This document shows positions 1-9,009 of a stretch of 64,000 nucleotides of DNA, piece by piece. The stretch spans positions 1 to 64,000 of the forward strand of contig CAVSJV010000005.1 of assembly GCA_963728405.1 (NCBI GenBank). Direction: 5' to 3'. The DNA is from Methanomassiliicoccaceae archaeon. Lineage in GTDB: Archaea > Thermoplasmatota > Thermoplasmata > Methanomassiliicoccales > Methanomassiliicoccaceae. The stretch's first letter is position 1. The number at the start of each line of letters is the position of its first letter. The position numbers and the translations under genes were made by a program. The notes under the pieces were generated by a model. It saw only the letters and a list, made by a program, of their open reading frames with translations. It searched no databases and was not told where the DNA came from.

Positions 1-751
1 AACAGATAGTCAATTCAGCATTGGCATGCATCAATGCTATCTGGCAGAATGTGATCTCCTTTGGGCTTGGAATGATTGAGGCAATAAAGACAAGTTCCCA
101 GGCCAACATGGGTTCGAGCTTGACCAATTACATCGGCTCGAATCCAATAGTTGTCATGTTATTGGCAATGGCCGCAATATTGAACTTGGTAACGTTACTG
201 ATATGCCCAGTAATCATGATGTGTAGCTTCATCATTGGTTTAGTTGCACCTATGATAATTTCTGCAATAATTGGTAGCATTACACCACAGCCCTCCGACT
301 CAATAACACAGCAAGCATCGTCAGATGAAGAAAACCTTGCCAGTAATTGCAATGATGCTATATCTGCTCAATATTGCTCCCAATTCCTTAGTCAGGATAG
401 AGCAATCGTGTCGATCCAGACTATGGAGCTGCGATTTCGACGATCGCATTCGCACTTTGGGTATATGGCTATTCGAGGAGCTTTGTGAGAGATGGTATCT
501 CTTTGATGTACTCAATATTGGCTCTAGCAATGAAACAAATTTACAATAGTGAACAGAGCGGTACACCTGAAAAATCATATGCATTAATTTTGATGGTGAC
601 AGCTGCGTCCATGTCTCCATTTCTAGCTTTCCAATCGATCATTGAGCAAGGATTCTCCATATACCGGGCAATCGTCACAATTGTCGCGGGTTGCTCATTG
701 CTCTATGTTTATACTTCAGCACTAGATAATATCGCAAATCACCAGGTGTAA
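1..751 (+). CDS. C-terminal part of a hydrophobic multi-TM protein (cassette 1 of putative polymorphic toxin array); 5'-truncated by window edge, frameshift near 400
   Basis: Frame of ORF 21..488 is open to the window start. After ~400 the hydrophobic reading continues in the frame of 485..751 (DPDYGAAISTIAFALWVYGY...). Segment SSLTNYIG..VVMLL..SFIIGL parallels SNLTNAILG..WVLV..GFLISL of 1430..2254. AT-rich. Confidence 0.5.
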
Positions 752-754
752 CTA

Positions 755-1216
755 ATGGCTAAAAACAGCGGAAATCAGGATCCAGTGACAAACTGGTATG
801 CAAACCCAGTACAGACGAGTCACATTATTCTGATGTCATTAATAGCAATAATCTTCTTAGCCGCTTCAGCAATAGTGGTCCTATCATATGGATTACTGGG
901 CATTCCACTTTTTCTTATATTTCTTTGCACCGCCGGCGCAGCGACAGTACACATAATTAGACTCGAAACGAAAATCAAACCTCGTTTCGTTGCTGTATCC
1001 GAAGATGGTATCTTATTCCGTTATAAAGACGGTTCAGAGAAACTTCATTGCTGGGAGAATATCCAGGAATTAACAATAACACCTCAAGACATAGGTCAAA
1101 AAAAGTTAGGTATGATAAAACTATTCGATTCTCGCTACAAGATACCAATTCCCTATGATGTCTTCGAGGAAGCAATAGTGGTCAGAAAAAAAACGGAGTT
1201 ATCGAGAACCCCTTGA
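755..1216 (+). CDS. Small membrane protein, 2 TM helices plus PH-like beta domain (candidate immunity protein 1)
   Basis: Starts 3 nt after the upstream stop. Two TM segments, then KPRFVAVSEDGILFRY...HCWENIQEL, matching the pattern in 2247..2789. Confidence 0.65.
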   Translation: MAKNSGNQDPVTNWYANPVQTSHIILMSLIAIIFLAASAIVVLSYGLLGIPLFLIFLCTAGAATVHIIRLETKIKPRFVAVSEDGILFRYKDGSEKLHCWENIQELTITPQDIGQKKLGMIKLFDSRYKIPIPYDVFEEAIVVRKKTELSRTP

Positions 1217-1429
1217 ATCCAATTTCAGTAGTTTGTAAGTTCCCACATTCAGGAGAATAAATTGTCAGATGAATGGGTAATTCATATCCATGAGCCGAAC
1301 TACCTATGTGTCGAGGCGGTCTTCGAGTTCGTGTTCAACTGCCTGGTGTCGTTCGCCACGGGACTGTACAACTTCGCTGCGATTTTGCTTCAGGCGGGCA
1401 TTAACCTCGTCTGCGGATAATACAGCGCA

Positions 1430-2254
1430 GTGACGACGGTCGTCAACAAGATCGTCGATGCGTTCAACGCGTTCGTGCAGTGGGCGATCGAGTTCATTCA
1501 AGACACAATCGATGCAACTATCGGTCCGGTGATCGATACGATCACCAACGCCATTGGTAACTATATCGGTAAAATCGCATCAGCCGCGATGGCGGCCGAA
1601 TCAGAGTATAAGAGCACTGGGTATGTGTCCTCCAGTACAATTTCCAACCTTACCAACGCAATCCTCGGAGATATTTTCTGGGTTTTGGTCGGAGCGGTGA
1701 CTGCAGTTTCAATCGCGATCATCGCAATCCAATTGGGAACGATGGGCTTCGGGTTCTTAATCTCACTTGCAATGGAGAATATCGCGTCGATTCTGATCGT
1801 GACCGCCATCGGCGCCGCAATGGCAACGATGGCCTATACCGGGATTGGGGCAAACATAGCTGATTGGTTGATTGACCTCATTGCAGGTGAGGGCGGCAAC
1901 GTCTCTGCCGGCAGCATGGTGAGTTGGGGAGTAGATCTCTCCTGTGGCATTCTGGACACCATATTTTCGGCAGCCCAAATGATGTATATTTCGGGAGCGT
2001 GCAAAGGTCTAGTGATAGGACTTCTTAGTCTGGTCATTAGCACATTCGGAGCTGCCTTTAACTCACTACTTCTTGACGTAATCGGACTGGCCTTAGGTGC
2101 ATACTCGCTTTATGAAGTGTATAAAAACAAGGCCAGCTTGGTGACATTACCGGACCCATCTGCATCAGAAATAAATATGCTATCGGGCATTGTTACAGGT
2201 TCTAGCCTTTTCTTTGGACTAGGTAACCTCCTGTATGAGGGATTAGATGACTGA
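1430..2254 (+). CDS. Hydrophobic helical C-terminal module (cassette 2; orphan, no convincing own start)
   Basis: Begins with shared box IVDAFNAFVQWAI. An upstream in-frame remnant (..QAGINLVCG*) is cut by TAA at 1418-1420. Several Gly/Ala-rich hydrophobic helices follow. Confidence 0.55.
   Translation: MTTVVNKIVDAFNAFVQWAIEFIQDTIDATIGPVIDTITNAIGNYIGKIASAAMAAESEYKSTGYVSSSTISNLTNAILGDIFWVLVGAVTAVSIAIIAIQLGTMGFGFLISLAMENIASILIVTAIGAAMATMAYTGIGANIADWLIDLIAGEGGNVSAGSMVSWGVDLSCGILDTIFSAAQMMYISGACKGLVIGLLSLVISTFGAAFNSLLLDVIGLALGAYSLYEVYKNKASLVTLPDPSASEINMLSGIVTGSSLFFGLGNLLYEGLDD
1450..1488 (+). repeat. 39-bp cassette homology box, copy 1 (encodes IVDAFNAFVQWAI)
   Basis: gatcgtcgatgcgttcaacgcgttcgtgcagtgggcgat matches 3193..3231 at 37/39 nt; both changes are synonymous. 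Confidence 0.9.
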
Positions 2255-2789
2255 AGTAAGTAATGCCATGGACAATCCCGTCGATATGAAGAACATACGA
2301 CTAATGGTGCTCGGTACCACAGCGGTCACGACTTTCGCTCTAGTCTTCTTCCTGCTCCGGGGGTTCCAGCATTGGACCGTGACCACGGTATTGCTTGCAA
2401 TTGGCATTACAATGATCGGCGCCTCAGTGCCATTCTATCTTGGATGGGATAAGGAATACTGGAGGCGACCGTATTCCGTAACGATCGGCGAGGATGGTGT
2501 GACGTGCTACCTCCGGTACGGGAGGAAGCCAAGAATGGTCGAATGGAACAGCATCATGAGCCTAACAGCTCCTGCCGGCGATCCGGCAAAGCTGACAAAT
2601 TACTTTAGCCAAGATGGTTTTCTGACCGTCCGGAACAATAGGAAAAGAAGCGGGTGGGACCAGTTCGTGCTTCACTGGCCCATTGCCGTAGCGGCCAGGG
2701 AGAAGTACAAGGAGAAGATGGGGCGATATCCTTTGATGTTCCCATGGGAGGATCCCGATTTTAAAGGGCCACGGCCGAAGGTACGATGA
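2247..2789 (+). CDS. Small membrane protein, 2 TM helices plus PH-like beta domain (candidate immunity protein 2)
   Basis: Overlaps the stop of 1430..2254. Two TM segments, then RPYSVTIGEDGVTCYLRY...VEWNSIMSL, paralleling 755..1216. Confidence 0.65.
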   Translation: MTEVSNAMDNPVDMKNIRLMVLGTTAVTTFALVFFLLRGFQHWTVTTVLLAIGITMIGASVPFYLGWDKEYWRRPYSVTIGEDGVTCYLRYGRKPRMVEWNSIMSLTAPAGDPAKLTNYFSQDGFLTVRNNRKRSGWDQFVLHWPIAVAAREKYKEKMGRYPLMFPWEDPDFKGPRPKVR

Positions 2790-2926
2790 AATGGGAAGCG
2801 TCCCCATCATGCGTTCATCGCTAGATAGTAAGGGTTCGATGGTCTTCGGCGGCATACGGTTTTTAGCTCGTCCTCGAGCATACGCTCGGCCAGGGGGAGC
2901 TGAGAACGGTCGATTGCCAAACCGAG

Positions 2927-3283
2927 GTGGGCAGCTCGAACGCGGCCAGCGTCGCTTATTTGAAACCAGGACGTGCATCGAGTTCCCTGTTCGGCAGCGC
3001 ACCGCAGTGGAGGAACCCCTTGACCCACCTGTGGGAGACCTTCGCGACACTGGCGAACTCGGTGCTCGATGTGGTCATGAGAGTTATCAACTTCCTTTGC
3101 GGCTTGGTAGACACCATAATCGATCTCGGCATGTGGATCATGGGCACCCTGGGCAGCACCATCGCCTCGACCGTCAGCGCCGTGGTTCACACGATCGTCG
3201 ACGCGTTCAACGCGTTCGTGCAATGGGCGATACAAACAATACAGATTCACGACGATTATGAGAATAAAAAGATACCCCGCTAA
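2927..3283 (+). pseudogene. Truncated cassette 3: conserved arm only, no variable C-terminus
   Basis: WRNPLTHLW...VINFLCG...IVDAFNAFVQWAI; similarity to cassette 2 stops right after the shared box. Confidence 0.6.
3193..3231 (+). repeat. 39-bp cassette homology box, copy 2
   Basis: 37/39 identity to 1450..1488. Confidence 0.9.
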
Positions 3284-3293
3284 AGGGGTAATA

Positions 3294-3388
3294 GGTTTGT
3301 CAAGCTGGCTTCGCGTAACACCGAAATAATTGAATTTCGATTTTCATCATCTGGCTAAAGCGATGTGTGGTCCCGGCTGAGCCCACTC
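3294..3388 (+). repeat. 95-bp dispersed non-coding direct repeat, copy 1
   Basis: Gapless alignment to 7180..7274, 76/95 identical by hand count (ggtttgtcaagctggc...gagcccactc). Confidence 0.85.
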
Positions 3389-3934
3389 TTCTTCTCACCC
3401 ATATCCACTCATCGTGTAAACAAATCTTCTACTCCAACCTTATACTGGCTAAGATCATTTAAAAAATGCATTGGAATCAATTTGGTAACGTCTGGACTTC
3501 ACGAGGTTTGGTCTCGCCTTAGGGCGCTAAGGTCCGGTATCGGTATGATACCGGATAAAATGTGTATGGTCATCTTGCTGCGTCAAATGAAACCTCCCGC
3601 CTCCTTTTCTCCCCAATCCCGAATTAAATTCCGTTTTGCATTGCCCTTATTCCTGATTTTCATCTTTCTCCGCAAGGGGCCTCAGCATATCTCTGATGCT
3701 CCGCCAGTGCACGCGTCCGAAAGCCAAACATCCTCATTTGACCCAGGAGGGTCGTCTGTCCGCATTGAGGGGCGTGGCAGAAGATGATGATTGGTTATTC
3801 GAGATGAGAAGGGCGAACGCTGCCAACATTGCGAAGAATGGGTCATTTGGAAGCAGTGATGCTTGCCAAATAAGGCGAGGATGGCGCTCGAGGAACATGG
3901 TCAGAAGGATTAATTGCATCTTCGGAGATATTGA

Positions 3935-4002
3935 CCAATGCTGGCGTATTATGGTCGGTCATTCGTGGTGATGGCCACAATCGCCATAACGAGGTTGATC
4001 AC
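3935..4002 (+). repeat. Duplicated, potentially structured leader upstream of small beta-protein paralog 1
   Basis: ccaatg.tggcgta...tggtcggtcattcgtggtga.ggc...caatcgccata.cga.gttgatcac is repeated at 4361..4431. Confidence 0.8.
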
Positions 4003-4018
4003 ACGATTGCGTTCATAG

Positions 4019-4288
4019 GTGGCGGAAATAATGACAAAAGCCAAGTTCGAGATAGGCGAGAATGAAAAGCACACGCTTACAGTAGAACGGGACTATATGA
4101 TGAAGAAAGACATCATCGAGCTGGACGGAGAGAAACTGACCGATGAATTTACCATCTGGCCCGGGGCGAGGAAATACTCTTTCGACATAGGAAGCTCTGA
4201 GGTGCACAAGGTCCAAGTCACCATGGGGAGGTTCTCGGCCCCGAAGGTGCTCGTGGACGGGAAGCCAGCACGGAGTTCGAGCACTTGA
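4019..4288 (+). CDS. Small all-beta hypothetical protein with internal two-fold repeat (paralog 1)
   Basis: AKFEIGENEKH...IIELDGEK...FDIGSSEVH...VDGK; clear paralog of 4460..4711. Start may be ATG 4031. Confidence 0.75.
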   Translation: MAEIMTKAKFEIGENEKHTLTVERDYMMKKDIIELDGEKLTDEFTIWPGARKYSFDIGSSEVHKVQVTMGRFSAPKVLVDGKPARSSST

Positions 4289-4360
4289 GACCGAGAATAT
4301 GGCGCTCTGAAGCGATGACACCATAGAATTGATCGAAACTGATCAATTCGAGGATATAGG

Positions 4361-4431
4361 CCAATGTTGGCGTAATGTGGTCGGTCATTCGTGGTGACGG
4401 CGACAGCAATCGCCATACCGAAGTTGATCAC
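4361..4431 (+). repeat. Duplicated leader upstream of small beta-protein paralog 2
   Basis: Second copy of 3935..4002. Confidence 0.8.
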
Positions 4432-4459
4432 GCTAAATGTGTTTGTAGGGGCGGTAGAA

Positions 4460-4711
4460 ATGGGAAAAGCCAAGTTTCAGATAGGCGAAAATGAAAAGCA
4501 TATCATCGTCGTTGATAACAGCATACTTTGGAAACGCATAATTATCGAATTGGATGGAGAGAAGGTGGTGAACGAGTCCCATTTTACACCACAGGGCAAG
4601 AAATTCGAGCTCGACGTGGGAAGTTCCGAGAAGCATCATGTGGAGATCAACGCTGGGGGCTTCTCGCATACCGAACTCTTTGTTGATGGCAAAGCCGTAC
4701 AAAAATCCTGA
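4460..4711 (+). CDS. Small all-beta hypothetical protein (paralog 2)
   Basis: ATG at 4460 aligns with the paralog start; MGKAKFQIGENEKH...LDVGSSEKH...VDGK. Confidence 0.75.
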   Translation: MGKAKFQIGENEKHIIVVDNSILWKRIIIELDGEKVVNESHFTPQGKKFELDVGSSEKHHVEINAGGFSHTELFVDGKAVQKS

Positions 4712-4737
4712 ACGTGCTTCGCTAAGGCTTTGATGGT

Positions 4738-5655
4738 ATGATCGACACTGAGAACTTGACCAAGAAGTTCGGCGACCTGATCGCCGTTGATGGTTTGAAT
4801 CTACATGTGAAGGAGGGTGAGGTCTTTGGTTTCCTCGGACCCAATGGCGCCGGGAAGACCACCACCGTCAGGATGCTCGCCTGCCTGATCTCAAAGACCA
4901 GCGGCGAGGCCAGGATCGGCGAGTACGAGGTCGGGAAAAAAGATGATCAGGTGAAGATCAGAAGAATGATCGGCCTGTCGCCGGAGAATGTCGGTCTATA
5001 TGAGGACCTGAGCGCCTACCAGAACCTGGACTTCTACGGACGGCTATACAAGCGAACCGAGGCGCAGAGGAAGGAGGACATCGAGTACTATCTCAAGCTT
5101 TTAGGCTTGTGGGAGAAAAAAGACCGTCCTGCCGGCTCGTTCTCCAAAGGCATGAAGCAGAAGCTGGCCATCTGCAGAGCGCTCATCCATGATCCGCAAG
5201 TCCTGTTCCTGGACGAGCCGACCGCCAACCTGGACCCTGAGGCGTCCAAGACGGTGCGGGACTTCATTCTGGATCTGAAGAAGGAGAAGAAGACCATCCT
5301 CCTGAACACTCACCATCTGGATGAAGCGGAGAAGATCTGCGACCGTGTGGGAATAATGAAGACCAAGCTGGTAGTGGTGGGGAAGCCTGAGGACCTCAGG
5401 GAGTCGCTGTGGGCTCGAAGGACCGTGGTCCATCTAGTTCAGGTCAACGATGCTATCCTCTCCGCGGTGAAGAAACTGGACGTTAAGAGCGTGGAGACCC
5501 TCAATAATCAGATAATTATCGGTGTTAACGATCCCGACAAGGAGAATCCGGATATCGTGGAAGAGGTGATAAAAGCAGGTGGCCGAGTTCAGTTCGTCAC
5601 CGAGATCAGGCCGTCTTTAGAAGACGTGTACCTAAAGCTGGTAAGGAGGGGATGA
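4738..5655 (+). CDS. ABC exporter ATP-binding protein (ABC-2/DrrA-like)
   Basis: Walker A GPNGAGKTT, signature FSKGMKQ, Walker B LFLDEPT, C-terminal SLEDVYL. Confidence 0.93.
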   Translation: MIDTENLTKKFGDLIAVDGLNLHVKEGEVFGFLGPNGAGKTTTVRMLACLISKTSGEARIGEYEVGKKDDQVKIRRMIGLSPENVGLYEDLSAYQNLDFYGRLYKRTEAQRKEDIEYYLKLLGLWEKKDRPAGSFSKGMKQKLAICRALIHDPQVLFLDEPTANLDPEASKTVRDFILDLKKEKKTILLNTHHLDEAEKICDRVGIMKTKLVVVGKPEDLRESLWARRTVVHLVQVNDAILSAVKKLDVKSVETLNNQIIIGVNDPDKENPDIVEEVIKAGGRVQFVTEIRPSLEDVYLKLVRRG

Positions 5656-5656
5656 A

Positions 5657-6392
5657 ATGGACTTAGAGATGGCTTGGATTATTGCCAGGAAGGACCTGGG
5701 CACGATCAGGAAAAAGAAGACCGTCCTTTATACGACATTCATACTTCCCGTGATCCTTTCCATCGCCCTGCCGGCGATCATGTGGTATGTGGAACAGCGC
5801 AGAGCCGTTCCGGACACCTACCTCGTGAACCTGTTGCACGCCTTCCCCTTCGTCTTTATCGCGATCGCTGGCTTCATTCCCGCCGGTATCGCATCCTATA
5901 GCATCGTGGGAGAGAAAGTGGAGAAGAGCCTGGAGCCTTTATTGTCAACGCCGGCGACCGACGGCGAGATACTGCTGGGCAAGAGCCTTGCCGCATTCAT
6001 ACCGGCGCTCATCGCCGCGTACATCGGCCTGGGGATCTTCATGGTCCTTGCCGATGCAGTAACGTTCGGCCAGCTCGGCTATCTGTACTTTCCGAACTCG
6101 ACCATGGCGATCATCATTCTCGTGGTCGTTCCTCTAGCGATTTTGATTAGCGTGGGATTCAACGTGATGGTGTCCTCCAAGGTCAGCGACGTGCGCACCG
6201 CCACCCAGCTCGGGGCCCTCGGCGTATTGCCGTTTGGTGTTATCTACCTGGCCTCCGAAATTGGGATCATTACGCTCGACACCAATGCCCTGCTCTACAT
6301 TTCCCTCGCTTTGCTGGTAGCAGCCGTGATCTTACTATATCTGAGCAAGGCCACGTTTCCGTAGAGAGGAGATACTAACGAAGTGGAAGTGA
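5657..6392 (+). CDS. ABC-2 type permease (frameshift near 6360)
   Basis: IARKDL, SIVGEKVEKSLEPLLSTP, EILLGK motifs, about 6 TM. The typical ending FRREEILTKWK* lies in the shifted frame ending at 6392. Confidence 0.88.
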
Positions 6393-7179
6393 AGGAAGTG
6401 CCTCAACTAGCACAGGGACCGCTTTTACGTGAAAATCGGCTCGCCGATGGTGAGGGTTAGCCATGATGGAAGAGATGCTTAGGTCAGCACCCGACAGATC
6501 ATTCCGAGGATGCTTCTCTTCCTCATCTTCCTTATTATCGCCTGGGACCTTCGGATCGATGGGGTGCTAGCAGTTGTCGTAGTCACACTATGTGCATTTG
6601 GGGATTTGTTCGCAAAGGTTGTGATCCGGCCGATTAGGTCGTTCTAGAACAATCGTCTCCCTATAACTATCTCCTCGCAGTCAAGAAGGAATGTGTAGAA
6701 CGAAAATGAGCAAGGCCATGAAGAAAGGGCAGTACACCAACGCCGACTTCGTTGAGAAAGCGGACGCATGAAAAAAGGAAGGCCTTCCCGTCGAGAATAT
6801 AACCTCCTCAAAAGGAAAGAGCTGCCAAGACCAGAACGAAGAACACAGACACAAAGAATGGCCAGGTCAATATGTCTTTTCGCCTTCGTCGCACCTCGAT
6901 CATCTGTATTTCGGCGAGGTCGAAGACGTAGCCGCAACAAGAACAGTTGGGGCATCGCATGGGCAGGCCGGCGAAGGGAGATCAGGTATCCAGATGAAAA
7001 GAATGTTCATGTTCATTGCGGGCGATAAACAAAATCAACCAGGTTGAGAGAGAGTGGTTGGTCACGCCCGACCTCTTCCCATTCGACAAGACGCTTTCGG
7101 CCACATCCTCCGACTGACAATGAACGGAAAAGCTCCCTGTTTCAGTGAGCTGAAAGAAAAAGTAAAAAATAAATTAAAT

Positions 7180-7274
7180 GGTTTGTCAAGCTGGCCCCGC
7201 TCAATATCGAATGAATTGAATTTCATTATTTATCATCTGGCTCAAGTGATGAGTGGGCTCAGCCGAGCCCACTC
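7180..7274 (+). repeat. 95-bp dispersed direct repeat, copy 2, ending in a perfect 10-bp hairpin
   Basis: Matches 3294..3388; gagtgggctc-agcc-gagcccactc at 7251..7274. Confidence 0.85.
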
Positions 7275-7593
7275 AACCCCTTATCCCGACTTCCCCCGGG
7301 GTTCGAGACAAGAAAGGCCCATTTCCTGGCGTCCAGGTCTCGTAACGATGCTTGCTGCAGCTCTCCCGGCCTTAATCGAAGGGAGGTGAGCATGGCCGTC
7401 GCGAAGCGACAGACCCCGCCCCCATCCTTCGATGTCTTTGGACCAAATGTCCGTCGCACCGGCATTCGAAAGAAATTCGGCTCTATCTGATACTGTTCTC
7501 CTCATTTTCCAAGCGTGGCCGCATAGATCGGCCGACCCACCTATGGGTGGCAGAGGGGGGCCTTCAATCGGATCATTGGAAGTATACGAGAGC

Positions 7594-9009
7594 TCATTTT
7601 CCTTCCTTGGCCTCTATCCGGCCGCTATTCACCGCCTCCAGTAGGGCCTGGTAATCCAGCAGGTTCTGCTTGGCGTATTGCTGCGCGAACGAAGCTAGGG
7701 CTTTGTCGAAAGCCTCCCTTTTCCCCAGATAGCCAGCGATCATAGCCGGGTCGCCGGACCGGGCATGGGCCTTGGCCAGAGTACCCCCGCACAGCCGTGC
7801 GTATCTGAACAGGAGCTCAAAGTCGGTGTTCAGATAATTGATAGAATATTTCATGTCCTTCAGCTGGCGGACATAATATTGATGCCCATCGATGGTCAGC
7901 CAGCCTAGGAAGATGTCACTGGAGGTTTGAATGATCCGTTGGCCGACCACGACCCTTTGCCCCTGATTCACATATTCGCTTTTACCGGCGTAGAGCTCGA
8001 GCACGGAGGGCCCCGCCTCCTTGAGCTGGAGGAGCAGAGGGTCGTTCACCTCGGCGAGCATGAGGGCAAGGCCGCACCTCGTTCCCACGCTCCCCACGCC
8101 CACGACCTTCATGGCAAAATCCTCGAAGTGATAGCGGTCCAGAAGGATACGCCGTTCCGGTCCCAGGGTTTCCCGATATTTTCTCAGAATCTCTTGGATC
8201 TCCGGCCAACCCTTCCTCTCCTCCTGATGAAAGATGAGGGGCGGGTCATCGACGATGCGCCTATGTCCCTCCACCTCGTCGGTGATTTTTGGATACACGT
8301 AAGAGGCCACGTGTTTCTGGGCTTCCCGGGCTGCCGTTCCGATCATCCTTTTACCCATGACGTTCTTGGCCCGTGAAATGAGCATATCGGTGCTCAGTTG
8401 CATGTACCACATGTCCAGAGCATTCATCCTGGACAGCTCAAGCATTATCTCTCGATAGGACTGGATGCCCAATGAGACGACGTTGAGGCATTGACGCTCC
8501 GTCAACTTGCTATTTTGACCGGCCACAAATAGGCTGGCCGCCAATCTCTTAAGGTCCCATTCGAACGGCGCTGGCAAGGTCTCGTCGAAATCGTTGATGT
8601 CGAAGACGATATTCCGTTCGGGCGTGGCGAAGAATCCGAAGTTACCAAGGTGACAGTCCCCACATGCCTGCACCCGCAATCCGGTCGAGCTGGTGAAAGA
8701 AAGATCGTAGGCCATCATGGCCGCCGCCCCTCGGAGATAGCTGAGCGGACTTTGCATCATGCGGCCATGGCGGATGGGAAGGAGTTCGGGCAATCGATCC
8801 CTTTCGGTCTCCAGTAAGACCTCTACCGGGTCCCGACGGTCGGAAGATGGTTCCCAGACGGCATGAGCACTTCTGGGAACCTTTTCACGAAGCTCCTTAC
8901 CCAACTGCATGCGTTGTGCGACCGTAGCGAACTCCGGTTTAGTGATCGCAATGGTCTCCTCCCGAACTTCGACCTCTCTCTTGAGCGTCTTCATCGCGGA
9001 TGTGGCCAA
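7594..9009 (-). CDS. DUF2252 family protein (kinase-like)
   Basis: RHGRMMQSP..YLRGAA, CGDCHLGNFG, FDINDFDET..PFEWDLKRL, KVVGVGSVG, LAKAHARSGD. Confidence 0.88.
   Translation of the reverse strand: MATSAMKTLKREVEVREETIAITKPEFATVAQRMQLGKELREKVPRSAHAVWEPSSDRRDPVEVLLETERDRLPELLPIRHGRMMQSPLSYLRGAAAMMAYDLSFTSSTGLRVQACGDCHLGNFGFFATPERNIVFDINDFDETLPAPFEWDLKRLAASLFVAGQNSKLTERQCLNVVSLGIQSYREIMLELSRMNALDMWYMQLSTDMLISRAKNVMGKRMIGTAAREAQKHVASYVYPKITDEVEGHRRIVDDPPLIFHQEERKGWPEIQEILRKYRETLGPERRILLDRYHFEDFAMKVVGVGSVGTRCGLALMLAEVNDPLLLQLKEAGPSVLELYAGKSEYVNQGQRVVVGQRIIQTSSDIFLGWLTIDGHQYYVRQLKDMKYSINYLNTDFELLFRYARLCGGTLAKAHARSGDPAMIAGYLGKREAFDKALASFAQQYAKQNLLDYQALLEAVNSGRIEAKEGK

Follow-up and report, generated by a model that had tools for sequence, protein, structure and literature searches.

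What is encoded at the very start of contig C5 of a Methanomassiliicoccus-like archaeon, where hydrophobic coding modules of little mutual similarity alternate with genes for small membrane proteins and recur behind a short segment of almost unchanged DNA? The stretch analysed here (the window) comprises 64,000 nucleotides, positions 1-64000 of C5 in an 18-contig, 2.73-Mb assembly, and begins at base 1 of that contig. A sequence-only reading had proposed for its first 3283 bases an array of toxin-immunity cassettes, from which a large surface protein would draw exchangeable membrane-inserting tips, each accompanied by a cognate membrane immunity protein. Based on the evidence collected in this study, the locus is understood, with a probability of roughly 0.6, as one end of an archaeal polymorphic toxin-immunity-type system, for which we infer toxicity, protection and delivery. 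Sequence comparison identifies two cassette arrays in the genome, the window opening inside one of them, and a giant carrier protein whose signal peptide is joined by a long, soluble stalk, built of Fn3-like and TSP3-like repeats, to a terminal hydrophobic module; silent spare copies of the variable end of that module (the tips) are stored in the genome, each with a piece of the upstream homology arm and the conserved segment (the box) at which arm and tip meet.

The open reading frames (ORFs) of the window place three cassette units on the plus strand in bases 1-3283, two of them made of a tip followed by the gene of a two-transmembrane (2-TM) partner protein and the third truncated, just as the sequence-only reading had described. 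Units 2 and 3 share the 39-bp box IVDAFNAFVQWAI, at 1451-1489 and 3194-3232; its presence holds, its claimed conservation of 37 in 39 bases does not, the count being 36 of 39 with three synonymous third-base changes, and a repeat search stretches the match to 50 nt at 88% identity. The motif IN(L/F)(V/L)CG noted ahead of the box is there as GINLVCG in unit 2 and INFLCG in unit 3. Also accurate was the description of unit 2 as having no real start and of unit 3 as stopping right after the box: the arm ORF of unit 2 (1262-1420) lacks a credible start codon and is closed by an in-frame TAA at 1418-1420, the same frame resuming with GTG at 1430 to carry box and tip through to 2254, and unit 3 reaches its stop 17 codons past the box. 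Unit 3 contains neither tip nor partner; the tip profile, a hidden Markov model (HMM) built from 30 tips, matches there at the box only (profile positions 1-17).

Scanned in six frames for the motif, the assembly contains seven copies of the box: two in the window, three near the end of C4, and one each on C3 and C18. The five copies outside carriers fall into two arrays at contig ends (C4, and C5 in the window), and the end of the C4 array mirrors the window, with tips and partners alternating on the minus strand. The copies on C3 and C18 sit on the minus strand at the very contig start, hence are the last thing read before the contig ends, and they close giant ORFs with signal peptide and Fn3 repeats. 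When the seven copies are aligned, a core of ~35 nt is almost invariant and divergence sets in immediately downstream. Across all 21 pairs, a 45-nt window on the box is 73-98% identical (21/21), downstream windows are 44-60% identical, approximately what the same aligner yields for unrelated DNA, and upstream identity ranges from 43% to 98%. The upper value belongs to the C18 carrier compared with one C4 orphan, the two being nearly identical over ~340 nt; elsewhere the upstream homology is shorter and more diverged. The polymorphism that the earlier reading expected past the box is thus present. Beyond this genome, the box is recognisable as IVDAF.AFV.WAI(E/D)(F/L) in 31 of 37 tip-bearing ORFs across the order, at a distance of 207-362 aa (mostly ~260) from the C-terminus, and several of the 6 ORFs that do not show it are truncated where a locus or contig ends. 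Run against a named genome collection, a degenerate DNA pattern of the box returned 9 records, 8 of which are metagenome-assembled genomes (MAGs) of Methanomassiliicoccus, Methanomassiliicoccaceae or Methanomassiliicoccales; the ninth, in a gene for a Planctomycetota membrane protein, was rejected as a chance match, as neither the tip nor the partner HMM matches there. The box itself is not a product of chance, because its seven genome copies always lie at the same junction and because tips and partners recur together across the order.

The large surface carrier that the sequence-only reading had placed upstream of the window exists as a class of protein, on C3 and C18 of this assembly and in relatives, although its join to the window is not assembled. 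On C3 the carrier comprises 2191 + 589 aa, a single in-frame TAA (C3 6575-6577, L001) parting the 589-aa signal-peptide piece from the 2191-aa piece; pyrrolysine read-through of this stop was considered and excluded, the codon being TAA and not TAG. On C18 a 1393-aa ORF is preceded by frameshifted upstream parts, the Fn3 region being spread over three frames (C18 4142-8881, L002). Both ORFs are built of Pur_ac_phosph_N/fn3-type repeats (9 or more stretches) together with TSP3-like repeats, and the parts upstream of them carry Sec-type signal peptides and, for C18, BNR repeats as well. A PDB sequence search with the final 901 aa of the C18 carrier came back empty (0 hits), and NCBIfam added no more than a sub-threshold TSP3-like similarity to CglD, besides the weak match of partner 2 given below. 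A census of the genome with the tip HMM counts two tips truncated at contig boundaries (they set in 18 and 34 profile positions past the box), four complete orphan tips and one stub. Two carriers that end at the box and two arrays that start just after it fit, at the level of sequence, two loci that the assembler failed to bridge. A soil-metagenome DNA run yielded two 151-nt contigs, both inside partner 2 only, and is uninformative on expression, habitat and the carrier join.

The same architecture is found on uninterrupted contigs of other genomes, among them one genome of 1 contig and one of 2. Of 201 genomes sampled across the order, 39 (from 17 of 37 genera) contain matches to a profile built on this genome's five partners, frequently more than one per genome and spaced as cassettes would be; tip 2 alone has distant relatives (22-37% identity) in 20 of the 201, some terminating very long ORFs and others lying in short ones. 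Uninterrupted carriers of 2249 aa (G092, followed by a partner), 2815 aa (G051) and 3622 aa (G027, like G051 followed by partner, orphan tip and partner) have the box ~260 aa from their C-terminus. In the 2-contig genome G041 the carrier has 1166 aa, the box lying at residue 904, and is followed by its partner, two orphan tip-and-partner units, partner fragments and an IS110 transposase; the gene of this IS110-family transposase (DEDD_Tnp_IS110 + Transposase_20; L016 6606-7409 on G041:C1) lies inside the partner-fragment end of the array. Six carriers were checked for hydrophobicity: their long N-terminal part is almost devoid of hydrophobic windows upstream of the last ~330 aa, one hydrophobic helix lies at most 90 aa before the box, and the remaining ones follow it. 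Particularly telling is the carrier end of G037 (a 1636-aa ORF plus a 692-aa ORF), whose tip and partner share 96% identity with a G041 orphan cassette across 1315 nt (tips 91.5% and partners 94.2% identical as proteins), the homology beginning four codons before the box. One cassette therefore occurs both attached to a carrier and as an orphan, with the breakpoint where the cassette model predicts it.

The tips, described earlier as divergent modules, are indeed divergent but not unrelated: jackhmmer links every one of them, and 30 align to a common plan, so that they constitute one diverged homologous family, to which the tip of unit 1 belongs in a frameshift-split form. Unless orthologous, tips are 18-35% identical; among 33 pairs, 2 of which are duplicated loci, tips have a median identity of 26% and partners one of 24%. 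The carrier ends in a hydrophobic module of ~330 aa and 6-7 helices, the last ~260 aa of which, the tip, start at the box. The common plan consists of the box helix, a second helix, a loop, a hydrophobic hairpin of 40-55 residues, a variable and mostly acidic linker, and three or four G/A/S-rich helices. Tip 2 follows it with a long amphipathic helix, the hydrophobic hairpin, a short polar linker (acidic in most relatives) and four more G/A/S-rich helices, and an AlphaFold2 (AF2) model computed on the family alignment is all-helical, with nine helices and a mean predicted local distance difference test score (pLDDT) of 71, that is, of moderate confidence. Most orphan tips retain full-length open frames. 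No Pfam family recurs among the 30 tips. The Foldseek search of the model against the PDB gave generic helical matches with no specific one (best E 0.7), and VIA-align gave a best Z of 10.7, to designed helical repeats and below the noise level stated for helical models. As to a likeness to colicins, Pfam listed no colicin family for the 30 tips (E <= 1) and Foldseek no match below E 0.7, with the pLDDT of the model at only 71.

The coupling of tip and partner is strict. Behind every one of the 38 tips whose 3' end is complete stands a small 2-TM gene, as the earlier reading had expected, in 31 cases of the predicted PH-like class A2 (29 scored automatically and 2 assigned from partner-profile matches) and in 7 of class A4, which comprises 2-TM proteins of 206-235 aa. 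The two classes are at best remotely related (hhalign, 37% probability, E 3.6e-4), and class A2 partners are themselves only 17-28% identical to one another. The description of the window's partners as 2-TM proteins with a PH-like domain and the common motif P..V.(I/V).EDG....W..I..L agrees with their hydrophobic helices, with the alignment and with the predicted fold; the motif, P..V.[VI].EDG....W..I..L in partners 1 and 2, coincides with the conserved core of a 20-member family alignment. In the AF2 model of partner 2 (pLDDT 85.3), helices 14-37 and 45-72 precede a beta sandwich with a C-terminal helix. Its top Foldseek hits are all PH, PTB or FERM-F3 domains, weak ones, the best being the Avo1 PH domain (E 6e-3, prob 1.0), and a PH-like fold is accordingly predicted by the model; the positive-inside rule places this domain in the cytoplasm. 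By protein-language features the nearest named clusters are bPH_6, PH_40 and bPH_7, all bacterial PH families. The window's two partners match no Pfam family at E <= 0.1, and among 20 relatives 4 match bPH_6 below threshold (best E 5.2e-4) and 1 matches bPH_7 (0.037); in NCBIfam, partner 2 gives a weak match to STM3941_fam (E 0.0055). An exhaustive HMMER search of 1.84 billion representative proteins with the partner profile returned 622 matches at E <= 1e-3, or 279 at the stricter E <= 1e-10, and a word-index protein search with the five partners as query returned this genome's own proteins only. As for range, the tip profile matches 13 of 401 genomes sampled from the phylum at E <= 1e-5, eight of them outside the order, where the matches are weak and one is a 3874-aa ORF; in searches not aimed specifically at bacteria, the two families have turned up in Methanomassiliicoccales and a few other genomes of that phylum only.

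Partners also occur without tips. A partner gene stands beside a fused double partner in G084:C32 with no tip within 8.7 kb, and two tip-less loci, G069:C21 and G069:C3, comprise two and three partners. Partner 2 of the window also persists in G069, 91% identical in nucleotides and accompanied by no more of its tip than the final ~190 nt. Fused multi-partner proteins are few among the representatives, in chains of two or three units: P0068 joins an A4 unit to an A2 unit, P0006 contains two A2 units, and P0031 and P0131 contain three units each, P0031 with an N-terminal zinc-ribbon-like segment in addition. Because partners are hoarded in this way without tips, a toxin-and-antidote relationship is favoured over anchoring or identity signalling. 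In its layout the locus shows every structural trait of polymorphic toxin systems that lends itself to a check in silico: a large multidomain secreted protein with export signal and repeats (carriers of 1166-3622 aa), a C-terminal domain that varies past a conserved junction, orphan tip cassettes with homology arms (the attached and orphan states following from sequence comparison), a putative immunity gene immediately downstream (38/38), and polyimmunity-like loci with fused partner proteins. The assortment of unrelated toxin folds on one carrier type, typical of such systems without being strictly part of their definition, is not seen.

The mechanism that we propose would proceed as follows. 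Homologous recombination at the box would swap tips. After contact, the tip would harm the membrane of a neighbouring cell, for example by permeabilising it, and the cognate partner would bind the tip within the membrane, thus neutralising it in the producer and in cells that hoard partners. Were the helix ahead of the box to span the membrane, which is a guess, box region and variable linker would end up on the cytoplasmic side, the same side as the PH-like domain. Archaea of the Methanomassiliicoccales are reported to lack a cell wall, and if they do, direct membrane contact, vesicles or transient fusion might each serve as a route of delivery.

A number of observations weigh against this proposal. 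The physical link between window and carrier is broken, because the window begins at base 1 of its contig, and the join is unassembled; the interrupted carriers on C3 and C18 may mean that the system of this strain is decaying, or that near-identical repeats were misassembled. No secretion or processing genes were seen beside the G041 carriers. A protein with a signal peptide that ends in 6-7 hydrophobic helices is expected to stay in the membrane of its producer, which implies that the exchangeable module may be the base of the stalk and not its far end. No likeness of the tip in sequence or fold to any known pore former came up in Pfam, Foldseek or VIA-align, and the tips form a single homologous family, compared with the many unrelated and mostly enzymatic toxin domains of classical systems; one family fits a recognition system about as well. 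Global co-divergence of tip and partner is weak (Mantel r 0.13, reached by 33 of 2000 permutations). In favour of pairing, 13 of 31 distinct pairs have their closest tip and their closest partner in one and the same other cassette, an agreement that shows co-inheritance and not binding, because adjacent genes share their history. Complex prediction for tip 2 with partner 2 (0.02 and 0.00, against a mark of 0.32) speaks neither for nor against binding.

The strongest competing explanation takes tip and 2-TM partner as lock and key in non-lethal self or kin recognition, or in adhesion identity, with control over aggregation, fusion or exchange. We regard it as unlikely but deserving of attention. 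It would account well for one tip family and one (or two related) partner families that are all membrane-embedded and highly diversified, for giant adhesin-like stalks with BNR, Fn3 and TSP3 repeats, and for Pfam scans that show neither an enzymatic nor a known toxin domain; the silent-spare layout of the cassettes would suit any system of identity switching. What it leaves without obvious use is the tip-less partner arrays and fused partners, which resemble the hoarding of antidotes, and the orphan partner that G069 maintains beside a decayed tip. A bacterial parallel is the IdsD-IdsE pair of Proteus mirabilis, in which a transferred membrane protein and a resident membrane partner have variable regions and their cognate binding defines self. 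The Ids proteins, however, travel by type VI secretion (T6SS) and are not fused to a giant stalk, and to our knowledge they are not stored as silent cassette arrays, nor are their partners hoarded. A comparable archaeal case is VARTIG of the Thermococcales, for which discrimination of self from nonself has been proposed (PMC8416519): a large surface protein whose C-terminal part is hypervariable by recombination, with variable downstream genes, likened to polymorphic toxins and of unproven function. The variable part of VARTIG is an extracellular immunoglobulin (Ig) domain, whereas the locus studied here has a polytopic hydrophobic module, a fixed class of 2-TM partner, a sharp box and clear silent cassettes.

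Less probable still is that the variable module is merely a membrane anchor and the 2-TM/PH-like protein its dedicated assembly or stabilising factor, the spares then being remnants of duplication and horizontal transfer. A Sec signal combined with a C-terminal hydrophobic module does predict a polytopic anchor in the producer's membrane, the two genes are tightly coupled, and the cassettes of the window are decayed (the frameshift in unit 1, the in-frame stop in unit 2, the stub of unit 3). Mere anchoring, however, gives no reason for divergence to 20-30% identity next to box DNA that hardly varies within the genome; nor would one expect the same cassette to move between carrier-attached and orphan states, partner genes to multiply without anchors, or most orphan tips to keep full-length open frames. 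A chance repeat or an artefact of misassembled repeats, suggested by the break of the assembly at exactly these sequences and by the three frames of the C18 Fn3 region, is refuted by the uninterrupted loci of relatives and the G037/G041 match, together with the 8 Methanomassiliicoccales records of the box pattern and tip and partner HMM E-values far below chance.

The polymorphic toxin-immunity-type system that we favour has clear analogies among known systems, and differs from each. In contact-dependent growth inhibition (CDI), CdiA is a very long secreted stalk with a C-terminus (CT) that varies past a short junction motif, the gene of the immunity protein CdiI lies directly downstream, and orphan CT/immunity cassettes have homology arms; in E. 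coli EC93 the CdiA-CT is an ionophore-type, membrane-acting tip and its immunity protein is small and membrane-embedded. The stalk, the variable end past a junction, the adjacent gene and the orphan cassettes recur here, and the EC93 type adds the combination of membrane tip and small membrane partner. The carriers, in contrast, have neither FHA repeats nor a VENN junction (Pfam, on six carriers or parts thereof, gives Fn3-like, PhoD_N, BNR and TSP3), a CdiB not having been searched for; the host is an archaeon without outer membrane, the junction is IVDAF.AFV.WAI, the tips belong to a single hydrophobic family and the partner has a PH-like cytoplasmic domain. With Rhs/YD toxins the locus shares a polymorphic C-terminal end, here probably membrane-acting, and orphan pairs of tip and partner near the main gene; Tse5 of Pseudomonas is reported as an Rhs toxin with a pore-forming tip (PMC10684867). 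Unlike these, our carriers have no YD/Rhs repeats or Rhs cage (Pfam, NCBIfam) and no T6SS context, and the tip is far more hydrophobic, with no recognisable enclosing shell domain.

The broader class surveyed by Zhang et al. in 2012 (PMC3482391) is characterised by a multidomain secreted protein, C-terminal replacement from standalone cassettes, adjacent immunity genes and, as a trait of polymorphic toxin systems, polyimmunity loci and proteins, and all of these have counterparts here, putative ones for immunity. The same survey (PMC3482391) gives classical systems in only ~15 of ~225 archaeal genomes, with most immunity superfamilies absent there, and describes toxin and immunity branches of archaea as nested in bacterial radiations. 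The tips studied here, by comparison, are one family and not many folds, and the families were found within one phylum only, with the limit on bacterial searches given above. For the partner, a functional analogy may be drawn to bacterial bPH proteins such as YdbST, which likewise have two TM helices followed by a PH-like domain: B. subtilis YdbST "provide protection against Amylocyclicin", a bacteriocin (PMC8144471), and a membrane protein annotated YdbT/bPH2 belongs to the enterocin DD14 locus (PMC7332713). No Pfam bPH model is matched at threshold, and the genes here are archaeal, hypervariable and linked to cassettes.

Taken together, the logic is familiar, and what is new is the carrier, the junction, the tip family, the partner family and the archaeal, probably wall-less setting. 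The survey of Makarova and colleagues from 2019 is said to have also sought analogous systems among uncharacterised families. Our literature search found no link between Methanomassiliicoccales and polymorphic toxins, but it did not reach that survey, which possibly lists these families; in what was retrieved in part on Thermoplasmat and polymorphic toxin, nothing was judged relevant. Conflict systems between archaea are barely characterised, and Makarova et al. 2021 (PMC8416519) state that of the predicted ones none had been characterised experimentally as of that year. The importance of the locus may thus be that the whole genetic logic of a polymorphic toxin system has been rebuilt from parts that belong to no recognised bacterial family. 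Methanomassiliicoccales include gut and rumen methanogens, and with its defined pair of small genes the locus lends itself to studying competition or kin recognition among wall-less archaea; the new hydrophobic family may act on archaeal ether-lipid membranes, and the partner could represent a new role for prokaryotic PH-like domains. On a practical level, the cassette repeats explain why these MAGs break at this locus.

A bolder scenario can be offered tentatively, the odds being somewhat against it as a joint claim: that contact antagonism has arisen within archaea and was not taken over from bacteria, wall-less methanogens bearing a stalk that ends in an exchangeable membrane module of 6-7 helices and new fold, which is passed from membrane to membrane and kills neighbours without the matching antidote, the modules being shuffled at the 13-codon box and the antidotes hoarded. 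The Fn3 stalk could, as estimated from its length, span 100 nm or more. If true, the scenario would add previously undescribed families of toxin and of immunity protein, and perhaps also a new principle of delivery, the transfer of a polytopic membrane domain between cells.

The coordinates of the array are collected in the table. The tip HMM recognises the tip of unit 1 at profile positions 35-148 (E 1.6e-9; genome-wide E 3.3e-6), and partner 1, beginning 4 nt past the tip stop, matches its family HMM with E 2.5e-36; the start of partner 2 overlaps the stop of tip 2 by 8 nt. The arm of unit 2 corresponds in alignment to the C18 carrier's pre-box region and to the C4 orphans (blastn, 76.6% over 209 nt against a C4 orphan arm). 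The base composition does switch at cassette borders, as had been read from the sequence, the G+C fraction (GC) stepping from 0.39-0.42 (bases 1-1200) to 0.48-0.53 (unit 2 tip) and on to 0.52-0.58. Contigs across the genome range from 0.51 to 0.61. Unit 1 (window 1-1216), at 0.39-0.42, lies below that range, which suggests that the cassette was acquired recently from a relative of lower GC.

Table. Features of the cassette array at the start of the window and of the repeat that follows it (positions in the window).
Feature	Position	Strand	Remarks
Unit 1 tip, 3' part	1..751	+	Cut by contig start ~34 residues past box; frameshift-split
Unit 1 tip ORFs	3-488 and 485-751	+	Hydrophobic; HMM match in frame 3 at 3-365
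Partner 1	755..1216	+	153 aa; 2 TM + PH-like domain; putative immunity; class A2
Unit 2 homology arm	1262..1450	+	Diverged copy of carrier pre-box region (FEFVFNCLV...AGINLVCG)
Box copy 1 (IVDAFNAFVQWAI)	1451..1489	+	Junction of conserved carrier end and variable tip; proposed recombination site
Tip 2	1490..2254	+	Complete orphan tip; all-helical (predicted); tip HMM E 4.5e-68
Partner 2	2247..2789	+	180 aa; 2 TM + PH-like domain; putative immunity; class A2
Unit 3 stub	2927..3283	+	Arm (INFLCG...) and box copy 2 at 3194-3232, then 17 codons + stop
Short dispersed repeat, ~95 nt	3294..3388		Directly after window array; copies 72-88% identical

The dispersed repeat has five further copies by blastn, at window 7180-7274, C17 175739-175834 and 296748-296930, and C4 238859-238914 and 279108-279150, the last of which sits at the end of the C4 array; a stretch related to it is found just upstream of a carrier gene in G118 (L019 1523-1623). 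Scans of window bases 1-9000 for tRNAs and Rfam families were empty, and the repeat could be a miniature inverted-repeat transposable element (MITE) or a regulatory element tied to these loci. Farther along the window, bases 3921-4711 comprise a 429-nt tandem duplication with two paralogous small ORFs (4019-4288 and ~4457-4711; MxKAKF(E/Q)IGENEKH...), to which Pfam assigns no family above threshold. Just downstream of the duplication lies an ABC-2 type transporter pair, with the ATPase at 4738-5655 and the permease at 5657-6364. The minus-strand gene at 7594-9009 encodes a 471-aa DUF2252 protein (Pfam E 3e-137), which appears unrelated to the array.

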